DNA from: a virus | Lineage: Duplodnaviria > Heunggongvirae > Uroviricota > Caudoviricetes | IMG/VR virus record: IMGVR_UViG_3300035670_000138 | Coordinates: 64,001 to 76,727 of that record | Reading direction: 5' to 3' (one strand) | DNA: 12,727 nucleotides | Shown here: piece by piece, positions 6,825-12,550 of the stretch | How the letters are laid out: each line of letters opens with the position of its first letter | Position numbering within the stretch: the stretch's first letter is position 1 | Translations under genes and position numbers: made by a program | The notes under the pieces: model-generated | Seen by the model: only the letters and a program-made list of their open reading frames with translations | What the model was told of the DNA's origin: nothing | Databases searched by the model: none

Positions 6825-6853
6825 AATTTATCACATAAAAATAAATATTGCAA
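6825..6853 (-). promoter_or_regulatory. Leftward sigma70-type promoter TTGCAA-17-TAAATT with extended TG
   Basis: -35 at 6848-6853, -10 at 6825-6830, 17-bp spacer, TGn. Predicted TSS about 6818-6820. Confidence 0.55.
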
Positions 6854-6876
6854 TAAATATTTTATTATGTTATAGT
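6848..6876 (+). promoter_or_regulatory. Rightward sigma70-type promoter TTGCAA-17-TATAGT with extended TG
   Basis: -35 at 6848-6853, -10 at 6871-6876, 17-bp spacer, TG at 6868-6869. Predicted TSS about 6883. Confidence 0.65.
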
Positions 6877-6882
6877 AATATA

Positions 6883-7035
6883 ATGATAGGTTCCGTACAA
6901 AAACCACTTATTCCTTTAATTATAACTTTCGACGAAAACAAAGTAGAATATATATGTACAGTATTAGGACAAAGTATAACTCAAGCATATGAAGTTATCC
7001 ATATGTTCGGAATGGTTGAAGAGGAGGAAGAATGA
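6883..7035 (+). CDS. Hypothetical 50 aa protein, probably leaderless (not in track)
   Basis: MIGSVQKPLIPLIITFDENKVEYICTVLGQSITQAYEVIHMFGMVEEEEE*. ATG is 7 nt after the -10 box; its GAGGAGG tail is the SD of the next gene; ATGA overlap at 7032-7035. Confidence 0.6.
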   Translation: MIGSVQKPLIPLIITFDENKVEYICTVLGQSITQAYEVIHMFGMVEEEEE

Positions 7036-7295
7036 TTGACTACTTAGGATTAGGTTTAGTGCTTATGGTTATATCTATAATGCAGTTTCTTGTTTTTAGA
7101 AAATACAAATCAATTAATATTATACAAAATTTATTTATATCAATATTCTCAAGTTTGGCAGTAATCGTGTCGGGGGTAGGAGGACTACTTTTAGTGGTGT
7201 CTGAACTGTACTATAAACTGATCCTTCTACTCGGGGGTATTGACATAGCAGATTTCCTTACTTTTCTAGGAAAGCAAAAGGAAGAAGATAAATGA
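7032..7295 (+). CDS. Small membrane protein, 87 aa, 2-3 hydrophobic segments
   Basis: GAGGAGG SD, ATGA overlaps at both ends, long hydrophobic runs. Confidence 0.8.
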   Translation: MIDYLGLGLVLMVISIMQFLVFRKYKSINIIQNLFISIFSSLAVIVSGVGGLLLVVSELYYKLILLLGGIDIADFLTFLGKQKEEDK

Positions 7296-7672
7296 AAAAA
7301 AACTACAAGGTGAAAGGGGTGACGAATGTAGTAAACATACCTCCTCATTCTCCGAAAGCTGAAAGAAGTAATAAAAATTATCAAAAAGGAACTAAGATTG
7401 ACTACATTCATCTAGCTTTACGTCAAAAGTTATTAAAAGCAATTATAACCGGAGGAACAATTGATACGCTTAACCCTAAACTCTATAACTTTGCAATAGA
7501 TTTTCTAAAGTTGGGAAATGATCTTATATATTCATTATTTTGGGGTTGGAATTGCATTACTCCACAAAAATTTGTTAAAATATATCCTAACACCTCGATT
7601 TATAATAAAATATTTGCCGATGAAATAATATTAAGCGATGATAAGTACTTAATAATAAGGAAGAATGTGTGA
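7292..7672 (+). CDS. YPN-module protein 1 (module C-terminal), 126 aa
   Basis: KIYPNTSIYNKIFADEIILSDDKYLIIRK near the C-terminus (Tyr codon at 7583). ATGA overlap with the previous gene. Confidence 0.8.
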   Translation: MKKNYKVKGVTNVVNIPPHSPKAERSNKNYQKGTKIDYIHLALRQKLLKAIITGGTIDTLNPKLYNFAIDFLKLGNDLIYSLFWGWNCITPQKFVKIYPNTSIYNKIFADEIILSDDKYLIIRKNV

Positions 7673-7959
7673 GAATAGGAGATGAGGTATACTTTTCGTT
7701 CTATGCTCACGATAGTAGAATCTATAAAGGTAAAATTTATAGTATTCACAAACACCTAGTTCAAATTCACGATATTGAAAGAGGTCGATTGTTCGAAACT
7801 CCTGCATCTCTAGTATTTTATTGTCTAAAGTATCCTAATACTCTTCTTTTTAAAAAGTTATATGAACATAATATTATTAAAGAGTTGGACAATCATCTGT
7901 GTGTATTAAAGGGATGCTCTGCTGATTATTTTAGGAGGCATTATAGTGGCAAAATCTAA
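7669..7959 (+). CDS. YPN-module protein 2 (SH3/KOW-like N-terminus, module C-terminal), 96 aa
   Basis: GTG start overlapping TGA. 'MRIGDEVYF...KGKIYSI...VQIHD' is a small beta-barrel pattern; LKYPNTLLFKKLYEHN at 7831. Confidence 0.8.
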   Translation: MRIGDEVYFSFYAHDSRIYKGKIYSIHKHLVQIHDIERGRLFETPASLVFYCLKYPNTLLFKKLYEHNIIKELDNHLCVLKGCSADYFRRHYSGKI

Positions 7960-8041
7960 TAGATTTATGCCGTCCCTCAAATATCTGAGTATAGTATTAT
8001 CAGATTATCATTCATTTATTCTCCGAGGTTTGCATGAGTAA
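7946..8041 (+). CDS. Small 31 aa ORF bridging two YPN genes (not in track)
   Basis: GTG at 7946 with AGGAGG 7 nt upstream. MAKSNRFMPSLKYLSIVLSDYHSFILRGLHE*. Overlaps both neighbours. Confidence 0.5.
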   Translation: MAKSNRFMPSLKYLSIVLSDYHSFILRGLHE

Positions 8042-8285
8042 AACTAGAACTATCAAATGTAAAATAGAAAAGACTAATTTCGGACCATACGCTGTTCATG
8101 TATATGCTTCTGACGGAATAGGATCATCATATTACTATTTAGCTTCACATGCTGCTATATTAGTTAACAGTACTTACTATAATGTTGAAAAAAGAGTGCC
8201 AAATACTGAAATATTCCGCAAATTATACCCCGATGCTATAGAAAATGGACAATTTTTGATAATTAGGGAGCTTAAACTTGAGTAG
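8034..8285 (+). CDS. YPN-module protein 3 (module C-terminal), 83 aa
   Basis: KRVPNTEIFRKLYPDAIENGQFLIIRE at 8196; CGAGG SD. Confidence 0.85.
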   Translation: MSKTRTIKCKIEKTNFGPYAVHVYASDGIGSSYYYLASHAAILVNSTYYNVEKRVPNTEIFRKLYPDAIENGQFLIIRELKLE

Positions 8286-8511
8286 AACTGTTGCTTGTCA
8301 CGTAATATCAAAGCTAGAAGACAAATTGTGGATCCTTCAGTTAAATCAGGGTAAACTTAGTTCCTTATGTATAAAAAACGACGATAAAATCCATTATAAT
8401 AAAGTTAAACTATTTCCAAATACTCGAATTTTTAAAGATTTATATCCAGAAGGTATTGAAAATGAAAATTTTTGGGAAATACGATATTTAGATCTTGATA
8501 ATTTAAAATAA
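8278..8511 (+). CDS. YPN-module protein 4 (module C-terminal), 77 aa
   Basis: TTG start with AGGGAG SD 7 nt upstream. KLFPNTRIFKDLYPEGIENENFWEIRY at 8413. Confidence 0.85.
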   Translation: MSRTVACHVISKLEDKLWILQLNQGKLSSLCIKNDDKIHYNKVKLFPNTRIFKDLYPEGIENENFWEIRYLDLDNLK

Positions 8512-8523
8512 ATATGCTATATT
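8495..8523 (+). promoter_or_regulatory. Internal sigma70-type promoter TTGATA-17-TATATT with extended TG
   Basis: -35 at 8495-8500, -10 at 8518-8523, TG at 8515-8516. Sits in the only true intergenic gap of the YPN array. Confidence 0.55.
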
Positions 8524-8543
8524 ATATCTAGGAAGGATGGAAA

Positions 8544-8792
8544 ATGAACAGATTTGCTGACATTTTTGAAGTATTAGCCGAGTTTTATGGATCACATAAT
8601 CTAGGAGTTGCAGTAAAAGTCTCTGTTAACACCGATACATACAGAGAATTACTAGCTTATGATAACTTTATAAAGCAAGAACAAGGAAATTACTCAATAT
8701 ACTCAGCTTTTTACGGTAAAATTCCTGTAGTAATCAATAATAACCTTCCGTCACCATGCCTTTTATTCAAGGATCAGAATGATAACTGTTAA
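8544..8792 (+). CDS. Hypothetical 82 aa protein, possibly with a degenerate YPN module
   Basis: AGGAAGGA SD. VNTDTYRELL aligns to PNTxIF/YRELY but lacks the Pro residues. Confidence 0.75.
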   Translation: MNRFADIFEVLAEFYGSHNLGVAVKVSVNTDTYRELLAYDNFIKQEQGNYSIYSAFYGKIPVVINNNLPSPCLLFKDQNDNC

Positions 8793-9123
8793 ATTTTATC
8801 CAAATTCTTCAATTTTTAAAGAAACTCTTAAGAATTATGTTGAGGTTGGCAATAAACTTAGAGTTATGGAGCTTGATACTGCAAAACATACTGAAAAAAA
8901 TGGACAAGAAGCTACTGACGAAGCTCTGGTTGTGTTAAACGAAATTAATAAATTCACAGAGTTAGATTTAAAAGATGAAAGAGATGTAGTAAACTTGTTG
9001 GCATTGTTTGACGATTTTGCATGTCCTGACGATTATCCAGTAGACACGGCAGAACAATTTATATCTTTCCTTCAAAGACATAGAGATAACATAATAAAGG
9101 CTTACAATGGTTCAGATGTATAA
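8779..9123 (+). CDS. YPN-module protein 5 (module N-terminal), 114 aa
   Basis: MITVKFYPNSSIFKETLKNYVEVGNKLRVME; acidic helical C-terminal domain. Confidence 0.85.
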   Translation: MITVKFYPNSSIFKETLKNYVEVGNKLRVMELDTAKHTEKNGQEATDEALVVLNEINKFTELDLKDERDVVNLLALFDDFACPDDYPVDTAEQFISFLQRHRDNIIKAYNGSDV

Positions 9124-9298
9124 ATACTACCCAAATACTATTATATACAAAGAGATATATCCAAAAGGGAACGAATACAAAGGCTTCTGGAGAGTTCCGA
9201 CAATGAAGATGGAAGTCACCTTTGACGGAACTACATATTATGATATAACCAATCTTCAGGACTATCTAAACCAGTTAGAAGATAAAGGATTACTATGA
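9107..9298 (+). CDS. YPN-module protein 6 (module N-terminal), 63 aa
   Basis: YKYYPNTIIYKEIYPKGNEYKGFWRVP at 9128. Confidence 0.85.
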   Translation: MVQMYKYYPNTIIYKEIYPKGNEYKGFWRVPTMKMEVTFDGTTYYDITNLQDYLNQLEDKGLL

Positions 9299-9519
9299 TA
9301 TACTTCTGGAAAGAAGAGAAGATGTATCCTAACACTAAGATATTCCGAGAATTGTATCCTAATGGTAAGGAATTTCAAGGTAAATGGGCGGTAGAATATC
9401 ATAAAGAAGTACTTAATACAAAAGGATACGAGAGTTCATACAAGCTTCTTGCAGACTTAGCTCAGTTGAGAAGGTACTCGAAAATATTAGGTATAGAAAT
9501 ATTTCAAAAGGATGAGTAG
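9295..9519 (+). CDS. YPN-module protein 7 (module N-terminal), 74 aa
   Basis: EKMYPNTKIFRELYPNGKEFQGKWAVE at 9325; ATGA overlap. Confidence 0.85.
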   Translation: MIYFWKEEKMYPNTKIFRELYPNGKEFQGKWAVEYHKEVLNTKGYESSYKLLADLAQLRRYSKILGIEIFQKDE

Positions 9520-9782
9520 TGTATTATAAATACCACAAGCTAATTAAAAAATTGTACCCCAACTCTAGTATTATTAGAGAGTTATATCCAAATGGTCGAG
9601 AATATAACGGTATGTGGGAAGTTAGTTATACAGGAGAAGTATGGAAAGTATTAAATACCGAAACGAGTCTAAGCTATACCTTTGATTACTACAATAGATT
9701 AGTTAGTGAGGGAATTTTAATTAAATATCATATGACTCGTAGTGAATATTCTGAATGGTTTGATAATAAATATGGGAAATAA
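9519..9782 (+). CDS. YPN-module protein 8 (module N-terminal), 87 aa
   Basis: GTG start overlapping TAG. KKLYPNSSIIRELYPNGREYNGMWEVS at 9555. Confidence 0.85.
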   Translation: MYYKYHKLIKKLYPNSSIIRELYPNGREYNGMWEVSYTGEVWKVLNTETSLSYTFDYYNRLVSEGILIKYHMTRSEYSEWFDNKYGK

Positions 9783-9987
9783 AAGAAATTTAACTGAAAT
9801 TATGTACAGTTGTACAACCTATCCTAACACTGAGTTATATCGGAGATTATATCCATATGCAGAACAGTCAGGTAAGTTCTTGATAACTCGAAAGACTTTT
9901 ATTAGTCCAAAAGCTCCAAAAGTTGTCAGCAAATCAGTTATTGACTTCGAAAAGGTTAAAGTGTTTACGGTAACTCTTTCAGACTAG
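9772..9987 (+). CDS. YPN-module protein 9, about 71 aa
   Basis: CTTYPNTELYRRLYPYAEQSGKFLITR at 9820. ATG 9772 is preferred over track start 9742 because it gives a shorter overlap with the previous gene. Confidence 0.8.
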   Translation: MGNKRNLTEIMYSCTTYPNTELYRRLYPYAEQSGKFLITRKTFISPKAPKVVSKSVIDFEKVKVFTVTLSD

Positions 9988-10018: not shown

Positions 10019-10195
10019 ATGAAAAAACAATATGTTTACTTAGGTGATGCCAGATTTGAGTATAAATGTCCGAATTGTGGAGAATCAAATTGGATTAGTT
10101 ACTATACCGTAATAGCTCAATTAGACAAGCAAGCTACTGTAAACACAACTTGTTTGGCTTGTAAAGATGATGTAGAGTTGGTTCCCTTACCATAA
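10019..10195 (+). CDS. Zinc-ribbon protein, 58 aa (not in track)
   Basis: MKKQYVYLGDARFEYKCPNCGESNWISYYTVIAQLDKQATVNTTCLACKDDVELVPLP*. CxxC...CxxC; AGGAG SD. Confidence 0.85.
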   Translation: MKKQYVYLGDARFEYKCPNCGESNWISYYTVIAQLDKQATVNTTCLACKDDVELVPLP

Positions 10196-10221: not shown

Positions 10222-10518
10222 ATGAAAATTTTATTGTTAGGGTTATTACTTTTAGCAGGTTGCGGAGAAACTGTCTTAAAGGTTCCAGTAGATGAGTACG
10301 GTCATATATCTAACATGAAGAAAGAATGTTCTACTCATAAAGATGCTATTTTTGAAGTGTACGGAAATCTAATAGAATATTACAATTCTGAACGACCGAA
10401 GGGTTATAGCTATGAATTTCAACTAGTTGTTGAATGTAAGTACCGAGATATCACTAAAGTAGTTAAGCAAACAATAGAATACGGGAATAATCCTAAATAT
10501 AAAACTAGATGGTGGTAA
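10222..10518 (+). CDS. Lipoprotein, 98 aa
   Basis: AAGGAGG SD. Signal peptide MKILLLGLLLL followed by lipobox LAG-C (Cys14). Confidence 0.85.
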   Translation: MKILLLGLLLLAGCGETVLKVPVDEYGHISNMKKECSTHKDAIFEVYGNLIEYYNSERPKGYSYEFQLVVECKYRDITKVVKQTIEYGNNPKYKTRWW

Positions 10519-10603: not shown

Positions 10604-10745
10604 TGCAAATCTCATGCCAATAGAATATCCGCAGTACTAATATCGTACTATAGACTTGTCATAGTTCTTGCATTAGCAAATATCGTGCCAATAGAATATC
10701 CGCAGTATATAGGCGAGCATATTGCATGTGCAAGTCTTGTGCCAA
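10604..10745. promoter_or_regulatory. Cluster of sigma54-type -24/-12 boxes
   Basis: Minus strand: TTGGCATGAGATTTGCA (10604-10620), TTGGCACGATATTTGCT (10675-10691), TTGGCACAAGACTTGCA (10729-10745), all GG-N10-GC. Plus strand: TAGGCGAGCATATTGCA (10710-10726) and degenerate TTGTCATAGTTCTTGCA (10656-10672). Confidence 0.7.
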
Positions 10746-10934
10746 CAAACATGGTACTAATCTCATACTATACTGCCAACTATTTGTGGCTTACACAATT
10801 GACTTATAGACTGTTTTTTATGGTCAACCCATACATTGACTAGGATAATTTTATCGCTTGTTATAATCAATTCTAGAGCGTTTTAGAACTATAGACTATT
10901 TTTATTTATTGGCAATTTCCAGAATATCCGAAGC
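10615..10934 (+). repeat. GAATATCCG repeats, block 1
   Basis: 22-bp TGCCAATAGAATATCCGCAGTA at 10615-10636 and 10686-10707; AGAATATCCGAAGC at 10921-10934. Confidence 0.85.
10859..10867 (+). promoter_or_regulatory. Extended -10 promoter TGTTATAAT
   Basis: Perfect TGnTATAAT. TTGACT at 10836-10841 is 20 bp away, so it is probably not the paired -35. Confidence 0.45.
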
Positions 10935-10963
10935 TATCCAGTAATATTTCAGTATAACATTAC

Positions 10964-11177: not shown

Positions 11178-11203
11178 GCCCCTAGTCAGGGGCTTCATTT
11201 ATT
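11178..11203 (+). terminator. Rho-independent terminator, possibly bidirectional
   Basis: GCCCCT-AGTC-AGGGGC stem followed by TTCATTTATT; A-rich run on the 5' side. Confidence 0.65.
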
Positions 11204-11227: not shown

Positions 11228-11257
11228 TTGACAAGATATTTTGATGCATGGTATAAT
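11228..11257 (+). promoter_or_regulatory. Strong sigma70-type early promoter TTGACA-18-TATAAT with extended TG
   Basis: Consensus -35 (11228-11233) and -10 (11252-11257) with an upstream T-tract; drives the 11286-12320 operon. Confidence 0.8.
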
Positions 11258-11358: not shown

Positions 11359-11835
11359 ATGGAAAATAAAATTACAATGAACGATGTTTTAAAGGGATAT
11401 GAAACAATCAAAAAAATAATTGACGATAAAATAAATGACTATAACATATGGTTTATTCAATCAAATAATGCCCCTAGTACCTTTAAAGGGATAAAAAAAT
11501 ACTACAATGAAAATAGTATGTTATTAGTATATAACGGCGGGGATCATGGCTTACTAGGTCAAGAGTATAACGTCAAGTTTAGAGCATTGCATGACTATAT
11601 GCATATTAAATTTAACTTATCGTTCAGTTATGACGATGAGAAGAAATTATCAGATATAACTAGTACAATGTTTAGTCTATATGCATATGATTCTTTAAAT
11701 TGTACTCAATGGGAATCATACGTTATTAAAATGATTTTATCTGCTGAAATTAAGGGGCAAATTGAGTACTACGAGCAAAATAAGAGTTATGTTGTAGATC
11801 AAACAAAATTTATTTTAAACTATATGGGGGCATAA
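11359..11835 (+). CDS. Hypothetical 158 aa protein with FRALHDYMH motif (putative metal-binding HDxxH)
   Basis: NVKFRALHDYMH...FSYDDE...AEIKGQ. GGGGGT SD. Confidence 0.85.
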   Translation: MENKITMNDVLKGYETIKKIIDDKINDYNIWFIQSNNAPSTFKGIKKYYNENSMLLVYNGGDHGLLGQEYNVKFRALHDYMHIKFNLSFSYDDEKKLSDITSTMFSLYAYDSLNCTQWESYVIKMILSAEIKGQIEYYEQNKSYVVDQTKFILNYMGA

Positions 11836-11836
11836 G

Positions 11837-11992
11837 ATGACTAAACAAGATTTAATTAAGAAAATAGATGAGATTGATTTAAAGATATTTGTATACTCGC
11901 AATTTTGGGGTAACAATAGCGATGAGATAAAACAGCTAGTTGATCTTAAGAATGAACTAGATAAACAATATTTAGAATTAATGGGGGTATAA
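11837..11992 (+). CDS. Small helical-hairpin protein, 51 aa (not in track)
   Basis: MTKQDLIKKIDEIDLKIFVYSQFWGNNSDEIKQLVDLKNELDKQYLELMGV*. Exactly fills the gap, with 1-nt junctions on both sides. Confidence 0.8.
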   Translation: MTKQDLIKKIDEIDLKIFVYSQFWGNNSDEIKQLVDLKNELDKQYLELMGV

Positions 11993-11993
11993 G

Positions 11994-12320
11994 ATGAACA
12001 GACATGAATTATTAGATCAATTACAAATGATATTGGATAATAAAGATATTTACAAGATCGAGGATAAAATAACTAATTATGTTAAGGGAGAATTATTTGA
12101 GATATCCGATTTATACGGGATCAAGTTAACTAAGTACTCAAAATACTCTGATTTTAATTTAATCTTGAATGATCTTAAAATAAAGTTTTACTTAGATATA
12201 AAAAATGCTGAAAATAGTTTTGATGACATTATTGATCTAGTTGATACCTACAATAAAATTAGTTATGATATTGACAGGGTACAGAAACGAGTCAATCAAT
12301 TTATGAATATTTTAAAGTAA
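11994..12320 (+). CDS. Hypothetical helical protein, 108 aa
   Basis: GGGGGT SD; last gene before the terminator. Confidence 0.8.
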   Translation: MNRHELLDQLQMILDNKDIYKIEDKITNYVKGELFEISDLYGIKLTKYSKYSDFNLILNDLKIKFYLDIKNAENSFDDIIDLVDTYNKISYDIDRVQKRVNQFMNILK

Positions 12321-12321
12321 T

Positions 12322-12350
12322 GGGGGGGGGCTTGTATGGCCCCTTTTCTT
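12322..12350 (+). terminator. Rho-independent terminator
   Basis: GGGGC-TTGTATG-GCCCC followed by TTTTCTT, immediately after the 12320 stop. Confidence 0.8.
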
Positions 12351-12362
12351 ATTGCCAACTTC

Positions 12363-12527
12363 TGGAATATCCGTAGTTATTTCATAACGTACGAATGGAA
12401 TATCCGTAGTTATTTCATAGAATATCCGAAGCATATAATTTTTATAGGGTACTTGACAACACAGGAATTTTATGTTATACTGTAATTTGATTCAAAATTT
12501 GATTGCTTGTTAACGGAATATCCGTAG
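12363..12527 (+). repeat. GAATATCCG repeats, block 2
   Basis: 24-bp TGGAATATCCGTAGTTATTTCATA at 12363-12386 and 12396-12419; AGAATATCCGAAGC at 12419-12432; GGAATATCCGTAG at 12515-12527. Confidence 0.85.
12453..12481 (+). promoter_or_regulatory. Sigma70-type promoter TTGACA-17-TATACT with extended TG
   Basis: -35 at 12453-12458, -10 at 12476-12481. Confidence 0.7.
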
Positions 12528-12550
12528 CTATATGTGAAGGCTAAACTTTC

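Follow-up and report, generated by a model that had tools for sequence, protein, structure and literature searches.

The terminal 12.7 kb (positions 64001-76727) of IMG/VR record IMGVR_UViG_3300035670_000138, the single-contig, 76,727-bp record of an uncultured groundwater phage with ~31% G+C, harbor an array of small open reading frames (ORFs) at positions 7292-9987, nine of which encode a shared module of ~30 residues with the consensus K-x-Y-P-N-T-x-L-F-R-x-L-Y-P-x-G-x-E-x-x-G-x-F/W-x-V. This 12,727-nucleotide stretch is referred to here as the window, and positions are those of the window unless the genome is named. The nine ORFs encode small phage proteins of a lineage-specific multigene family, which is defined by this ~30-residue mini-domain, and the coordinates of the array, its leader ORFs and its putative promoter are compiled in Table 1.

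The genome consists of one plus-strand block and one minus-strand block, the latter containing the structural genes. The plus-strand block runs from window position ~6883 across the ends of the record to genome position ~30 kb and encodes a class II ribonucleotide reductase, a PD-(D/E)XK nuclease, ERF, a primase-helicase, a family-B polymerase, thymidylate synthase, dUTPase and two ClpP-like proteins. The nine-member array is located in the first plus-strand operon, directly after the divergent intergenic region, with Shine-Dalgarno sites ahead of nearly every gene of the operon and a sigma70-like promoter that probably drives its expression.

Table 1. Positions, strand and main attributes of the array ORFs, the leader ORFs and the promoter in the window
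Feature	Position	Strand	Length (aa)	Module position	Profile score (bits)	Description
Promoter	6848-6876	+				sigma70-like, TTGCAA-17-TATAGT with TG; divergent intergenic region between leftward packaging genes and ORF 6883
Leader ORF 1 of operon	6883-7035	+	50			acidic EEEEE tail; 45% identity to counterpart in relative G001
Leader ORF 2 of operon	7032-7295	+	87			hydrophobic, membrane-like
Member 1	7292-7672	+	126	7562-7660	27	helical-looking N-domain; C-terminal degenerate module
Member 2	7669-7959	+	96	7810-7908	32	SH3/Tudor-looking N-domain; degenerate module; 15-aa tail
Member 3	8034-8285	+	83	8175-8273	52	beta-rich N-domain, 'RTIKCxIEK' subfamily; C-terminal module
Member 4 (P0011)	8278-8511	+	77	8392-8490		N-domain and C-terminal module
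Module-less ORF inside array	8544-8792	+	82			own promoter-like site at 8495-8523
Member 5	8779-9123	+	114	8779-8874	41	N-terminal module, then acidic helical 80-aa domain
Member 6	9107-9298	+	63	9107-9205	53	N-terminal module, then strand-helix tail
Member 7 (P0002)	9295-9519	+	74	9304-9402		N-terminal module, then helix and strand
Member 8	9519-9782	+	87	9534-9632	53	N-terminal module, then alpha/beta tail
Member 9	9742-9987	+	81 from GTG 9742, or 71 from ATG 9772	9799-9897		32-aa tail

Conservation of the module within the array

A six-frame regular-expression search of the window with the motif [YFVLM]PN[TS]x[ILV][FYI][KRN] returned exactly nine matches, all on the plus strand and all inside ORFs, with first codons at positions 7583, 7831, 8196, 8413, 8797, 9128, 9325, 9555 and 9820, against a mean of 0.01 matches in 200 shuffles of the sequence. 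The nine segments can be aligned over ~33 residues, with the P and N invariant, and the second half of the module, YPxGxExxGx[WFL]x[IV], is present in its strict form in four of the nine and in a loose form in six, the 'YP' having been lost in the ORFs starting at 7292, 7669 and 8779. These results bear out the first-pass annotation, a model's reading of the sequence alone, which had reported nine motif-bearing ORFs at these codons. The tandem array of nine that it described holds as regards its members, all of which are present; the array is, however, broken by a module-less ORF (Table 1), and its nine members amount to fewer than half of the 19 module copies in the genome.

The same annotation had placed the conservation at the protein level on account of synonymous codon variation, and this proved correct. 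Over 16 ungapped core codons in 18 genomic copies, the proportion of synonymous differences (pS) is 0.69, near saturation, whereas that of nonsynonymous differences (pN) is 0.31, and the nucleotide identity of the 18 copies averages 61% and reaches at most 77% (over 48 nt). Because synonymous sites are close to saturation and nucleotide identity does not exceed this maximum, the module is conserved as protein and not as a DNA repeat, and the same values rule out a simple repeat or gene-conversion tract.

Once the module is masked, BLASTP (E ≤ 1e-3) matches no member of the array to any of the other eight, so that at a sequence-detectable level they are not the end-to-end paralogs that would have spoken against the first-pass annotation, but, as it had claimed, a common module joined to differing domains. 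The module is also more constrained than its flanks, the other point on which that annotation had staked its proposal: it is the better conserved part in 43 of 44 alignable pairs (54% vs 34% identity, from 14 subfamilies with alignable partner regions), pairs that are not independent of each other and that serve here as a stand-in for dN/dS across related phages.

The array members differ in where the module is placed, and members 5 to 8 present no N-domain ahead of it. The idea that the N-terminal-module genes at 8779-9782 are canonical domain-plus-module genes whose boundaries have been shifted by displaced stop codons was rejected, because each of these genes has its own Shine-Dalgarno site and start, because the module-first architecture recurs in at least 14 metagenomic proteins and because the structural model of member 7 packs module and tail as one unit. 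The N-domain of member 3 groups, after masking of the module, with those of P0034, P0059, P0073 and P0088; that of member 2 yields only a weak hint of Tudor_2 in Pfam (E 0.09); and member 5 has a 99.9%-identical copy in contig L024. Judging from its near-identical ortholog in a close relative (P0028), member 9 more likely starts at ATG 9772 than at GTG 9742. P0028 equals member 9 over the first 41 residues from 9772, through the module, and has little similarity to it in the tail beyond, which suggests a recombination breakpoint or very fast change just after the module; no frameshift accounts for the divergence.

Predicted fold, family size and partner domains

AlphaFold2 modeling with family alignments predicts the module to be an autonomously folding strand-helix-hairpin mini-domain. 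In member 4 the module is modeled with a predicted local distance difference test (pLDDT) score of 93-97, comprising a strand (residues 42-47), a helix (50-55) and a hairpin (60-70), and the N-domain with a pLDDT of ~44. The model of member 7 (mean pLDDT 87) has the element order b-a-b-b-a-b, of which the module forms the first b-a-b-b, and the isolated 34-residue module is modeled at pLDDT 71-80. The helix and beta-hairpin that the first-pass annotation had proposed are thus both predicted, with a strand in front. The column statistics likewise fit a very small, self-capping fold, in which N-T would provide the helix N-cap, L4, F5, L8 and Y9 would line one helix face, Y-P-x-G would form the C-cap and turn, and F/W-x-V would constitute the last strand. 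Basic residues occupy two exposed positions, with K at position -3 in 86 of 108 sequences and R or K at +6 in 95 of 108. A homodimer prediction for the isolated module (two copies, 108-row alignment) scored 0.08 against a mark of 0.42, a result that speaks neither for nor against binding.

Searches with both AlphaFold2 models found no usable structural neighbor in the PDB (Foldseek, best E 1.4), the wide VIA search (best Z 3.9), the AFDB clusters (best E 0.27), BFVD (best E 0.18) or the ESM Atlas (template modeling (TM) score ≤0.49), and the module profile gave only chance matches to PDB sequences (E ~0.6). Pfam and PHROGs returned nothing below E 0.009 for ten array ORFs and, for 81 family members, only scattered single matches, none of them on the module, which agrees with the earlier view that it belongs to no named family. 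The model of member 7 does share its element order with ferredoxin-like and ACT domains, and its weak neighbors are ACT domains, designed ferredoxin folds and M20 peptidase dimerization domains, but these similarities (best Z 3.9, TM <0.5) fall below the level of kinship, and most family members have no more than the first b-a-b-b half. For P0010, the model in the ESM Atlas bears a weak resemblance, with a TM score of ~0.6 over ~60-90 residues, to the SH3 domains of RecD/TraI-type helicases. Clamp-binding motifs were also considered and rejected. The bacterial sliding-clamp motif QL[SD]LF and the PIP box QxxLxxFF are short unstructured peptides with Q at position 1 and a set spacing of hydrophobic residues; position 1 of the module never holds Q, being N in 107 of 108 sequences, its hydrophobic residues follow the spacing L4-F5-L8-Y9 and it is predicted to form a folded helix.

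The 19 copies of the module in the genome correspond to ~24% of roughly 78 plus-strand ORFs, or about a quarter of the early and middle genes. Beyond the window there are nine further copies of the motif and a tenth in which YPKT replaces YPNT, all ten at the extreme C-terminus of ORFs of 87-145 residues and most of them adjoining one another, as pairs or as a triplet, within the replication genes. A 33-position profile built from 18 copies and searched against 1.84 billion representative proteins (E ≤ 1e-3) identified 109 matches, comprising ~24 of the genome's own proteins, one chance match to a 1144-residue repeat protein and ~85 others, all of 30-140 aa, which originate from ENA and Logan contigs mostly 0.5-3 kb long. 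Scans of IMG/VR and JGI metagenomes for the module by DNA or peptide pattern returned one chance match (L005) and otherwise none, and neither megablast of the window nor tblastn of the module found a match among GenBank phages.

The module is portable: of 111 proteins taken together, 82 carry it at the C-terminus and 19 at the N-terminus with more than 40 residues behind it. After masking, 71 of the 111 partner regions are singletons, and the partner domains look unrelated, ranging from beta-rich and helical types to a hexapeptide-repeat type in P0096. What the first-pass annotation had termed payloads are binding-type domains of 30-100 residues, not enzymes. A 24-kb relative contig shares gene order with this genome, and in both the module is present in the pair of genes directly upstream of the primase-helicase, the N-domains differing between the two. 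The partner domains attached to the module turn over fast, at fixed positions too.

The two ClpP-like genes of this genome (22802-23377 and 28397-29206; L002) lie in the early and middle plus-strand block, not in the structural block, and the first of them adjoins module genes here, in the relative G001 and in a 3-kb relative contig.

A sister lineage, its polymerase and neighboring features

The complete 84.8-kb phage G001, recovered among the IMG/VR relatives of the terminase, has a TerL that is 71% identical to that of the phage studied here and encodes no fewer than 14 small proteins bearing a variant of the module, v-K-(N/D)-T-R-L-A-R-K-M/L-Y-P-x-A-E...G-x-L-x-I, located at the C-terminus and, in two cases, at the N-terminus. 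The two module types cross-match at 10-23 bits and differ at two positions that are near-invariant within each type, P0 being replaced in G001 by K, N or another residue and F5 by A. Orthology of the N-domains of the two phages at syntenic sites is weak, with E-values of 0.003 and 0.015, and is compatible with concerted evolution as well as with independent expansion.

The two phages, with terminases 71% identical, have non-orthologous replicative polymerases at the same place in the genome, a family-B polymerase with an AAA protein in this genome (12576-15065; L001) and a 790-residue family-A polymerase in G001 (41583-43955; L028:1583-3952). A profile derived from only the 14 small proteins of G001 scores 41-45 bits on residues 343-366 of the G001 polymerase, and the matching segment is kept in four related polymerases. 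HMMER alignments equate the G001 polymerase up to residue 252 with Klenow-fragment position 234 and from residue 381 with Klenow-fragment position 248, and place its residue 370 at chain position 214 of the Bacillus fragment. With the thumb limits of the Bacillus fragment structures, the module would close an insertion of ~115-130 residues at the start of the thumb.

BLASTP detected no similarity that would indicate an internal duplication of a thumb motif around the polymerase copy. Identity with a motif in Thermus phage G20c DNA polymerase I named S-beta-alpha-R, which consists of two long strands followed by two helices (residues 158-223) at the end of the 3'-5' exonuclease domain (PMC9629493), was likewise rejected: the G001 copy lies ~130 residues past the exonuclease match and has the order strand-helix-hairpin, and phmmer aligned none of it to 7r0k.

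Acidic C-terminal tails are found on replication proteins of both phages. The primase-helicase (genome 10353-12266) ends in EEDDI and ERF (8380-8934) in DDDDI in this phage (L001), and the G001 helicase (38251-40173) ends in DDDDGY, all similar to the docking tails of SSB and of T7 gp4 and gp2.5.

Immediately after the array, the window encodes a 58-aa ORF (10019-10195) with two CxxC pairs, zinc-ribbon-like, and a 98-aa ORF (10222-10518) with a lipoprotein signal (LLLAGC). Farther downstream, a hairpin resembling a bidirectional terminator (11178-11193) precedes a promoter that matches the sigma70 consensus perfectly (11228-11257; TTGACA-18-TATAAT, TG upstream) and lies before the ORF starting at 11359. 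A ~20-nt repeat with the core GGAATATCCG(C/T/A)AG occurs at least seven times, on both sides of the gene cluster 11359-12320 (at 10605-10711, 10901-10937, 12344-12437 and 12495-12531), and its copies look like iterons or operators. No tRNA genes were found in the genome. The best GenBank-phage match of the TerL is a Silvanigrella phage (33% identity). The array segment 7292-9987 is nearly complete only in subsurface and soil metagenome runs of one study, with small shares in freshwater runs; the sequencing runs that contain it are DNA runs from those subsurface and soil metagenomes, with no RNA runs among them.

Candidate roles and known systems

The first-pass annotation had interpreted the array as a combinatorial host-takeover or anti-defense toolkit, a proposal that finds no support beyond the early position of the array; the replication genes, outside the first operon, are where ten of the 19 copies are found. 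The reading that we favor, although it is tentative and falls somewhat short of probable, is that the module is a common interaction handle for a conserved partner, either linked to the replisome or a nucleic acid. Such a handle would link a single partner, most probably nucleic acid or a component of the replisome, to many different small binding domains and, in the sister lineage, to the thumb of the polymerase. In that case the small proteins would act as adaptors or competitors, and the window array would represent an early-expressed, locally expanded adaptor set. The polymerase-embedded copy lends indirect support to the common partner that the first-pass annotation had proposed and hints at a docking handle of this kind. 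Several observations weigh against this interpretation. The handle and its partner are themselves predictions, and most of the invariant residues (P-N-T, Y-P-x-G and the hydrophobic positions) are needed for capping and for the core, so their conservation may reflect folding alone. The net charge of the module varies widely (pI 4.7-10), which is awkward for a single electrostatic partner, and the two lineage-specific types could be independent expansions from one ancestor per lineage instead of the outcome of co-evolution with a partner. In addition, the family-B polymerase of this genome has no module, and the placement of the G001 insertion in the thumb depends on HMMER alignment boundaries and on the subdomain limits of the Bacillus fragment.

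The exposed basic residues at -3 and +6, together with the strongly basic helix T-R-L-A-R-K of the G001 type, are consistent with the module being a minimal nucleic-acid-binding element, which in combination with SH3-like N-domains would yield small DNA- or RNA-binding proteins comparable to the Sso7d or LSm types and, in the polymerase, would grip the product duplex and raise processivity. In Klenow and Bacillus fragment structures it is the thumb that contacts duplex DNA, and the polymerase copy maps to this region; the SH3-like model of P0010 points in the same direction. Several modules are, however, acidic overall (pI 4.7, 5.0 and 4.9), no DNA- or RNA-binding family was matched in Pfam or the PDB, and a TM score of 0.6 over such short stretches constitutes weak evidence, so that we regard this as a serious candidate but an unlikely one. 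Quite unlikely, too, is that there is no common partner and that the module is a folding nucleus or stability cap, possibly an oligomerization strand, of paralogs evolving by birth and death, with function residing in the variable domain. The conserved residues are those typical of a helix N-cap (N-T), a C-cap (Y-P-x-G) and a core, the module of member 7 is half of one compact unit and not a separate domain, and two lineage-specific types would fit separate expansions; on the other hand, the module is kept on partners that look unrelated, its occurrence at either terminus and inside a polymerase is hard to reconcile with a mere cap, and folding does not call for the exposed basic residue that it conserves. 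Even if the module were only a stability cap, the family would still provide a clean case of domain-level birth-and-death evolution in phage accessory genes.

Arguing from analogy, the mini-domain might instead be a receptor for the acidic C-terminal tails (...DDDDI/Y) of the primase-helicase, ERF and bacterial single-stranded DNA-binding proteins (SSBs) in general, a possibility that we consider improbable. It would then couple the polymerase thumb of the sister lineage to the helicase, in the manner of the T7 thioredoxin-binding domain, and the ~20 free-standing members would be programmable adaptors or competitors that supply the replisome/SSB hub with different small binding domains or drive host proteins off it. 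We give very little weight to the module genes being selfish, mobile mini-genes, or encoding proteolysis adaptors or degron-tagged proteins for the two ClpP-like proteases of the phage. Their occurrence in pairs and triplets among replication genes is reminiscent of free-standing homing genes, one copy is in frame within a polymerase gene, and module genes lie just downstream of the first ClpP-like gene in both phages, but they contain no nuclease or intein motifs, the nucleotide identities given above reveal no DNA-level likeness of the kind left by recent movement, a place beside ClpP would arise by chance when module genes make up a quarter of the early genes, and a folded domain would be an unusual degron. 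Lastly, the end of the module usually falls within a few codons of the start of the next gene, as would be expected if its conservation stemmed from an overlapping DNA or RNA signal at gene ends, such as a promoter, a ribosome-binding site or a gene-junction element. This explanation, to which we attach hardly any credence, is effectively refuted because synonymous sites are near saturation, with third positions varying freely; moreover, substitutions are conservative at the amino acid level (I/L, F/Y, K/R), and 19 proteins have the module at the N-terminus and one in the middle of a polymerase.

Small early phage proteins constitute the largest pool of unexplained phage genes, and here one 30-residue fold that is invisible to databases organizes about a quarter of the early and middle genes of one phage and also forms part of the replicative polymerase in a sister lineage. 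The combination of one handle, many partners and one polymerase insertion offers an entry point to how a phage wires small proteins to one hub, and the module may also yield a very small, portable and self-folding interaction tag.

Among known systems, the thioredoxin-binding domain of T7 gp5 is inserted in the thumb and serves as the docking site for thioredoxin and for the acidic tails at the C-termini of gp4 and gp2.5. The likeness lies in a thumb insertion in a phage family-A polymerase and in the acidic-tailed helicases and ERF of this phage group, whereas the two insertions occupy different sites in the thumb and are not similar in sequence, and the T7 insert is not known to be spread over free-standing small proteins; tail docking by analogy with T7 is a conjecture. 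Poxvirus ankyrin proteins carry a C-terminal PRANC/F-box-like domain whose partner is the host SCF ligase, and they similarly combine a short conserved terminal module with many variable binding domains expanded in one virus genome, but there the partner is known and here the hosts are bacteria.

The closest described parallel is the LSm-like early protein family of T4, GoF/MotB.1/Frd.2, which has three members (Kim et al. 2025, PMC12152347). Both families consist of several small, non-essential-looking early phage proteins in which SH3/LSm-like barrels, putative in the present family, are joined to other small domains, both are missed by ordinary sequence searches and the function of both is undescribed. 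In the T4 family the shared element is an N-terminal, five-stranded barrel of ~85 residues and the C-terminal domains vary, whereas here a 30-residue strand-helix-hairpin is shared and the putative barrels vary, in 19 members instead of three; no match in sequence or fold linked the two families, although none was sought by comparing them directly. Phage families of small early proteins that have expanded around one domain are a known kind, whereas the module itself matches nothing described, and the N-terminal-module subfamily of the window, the measurements of constraint and the polymerase-embedded copy are new.

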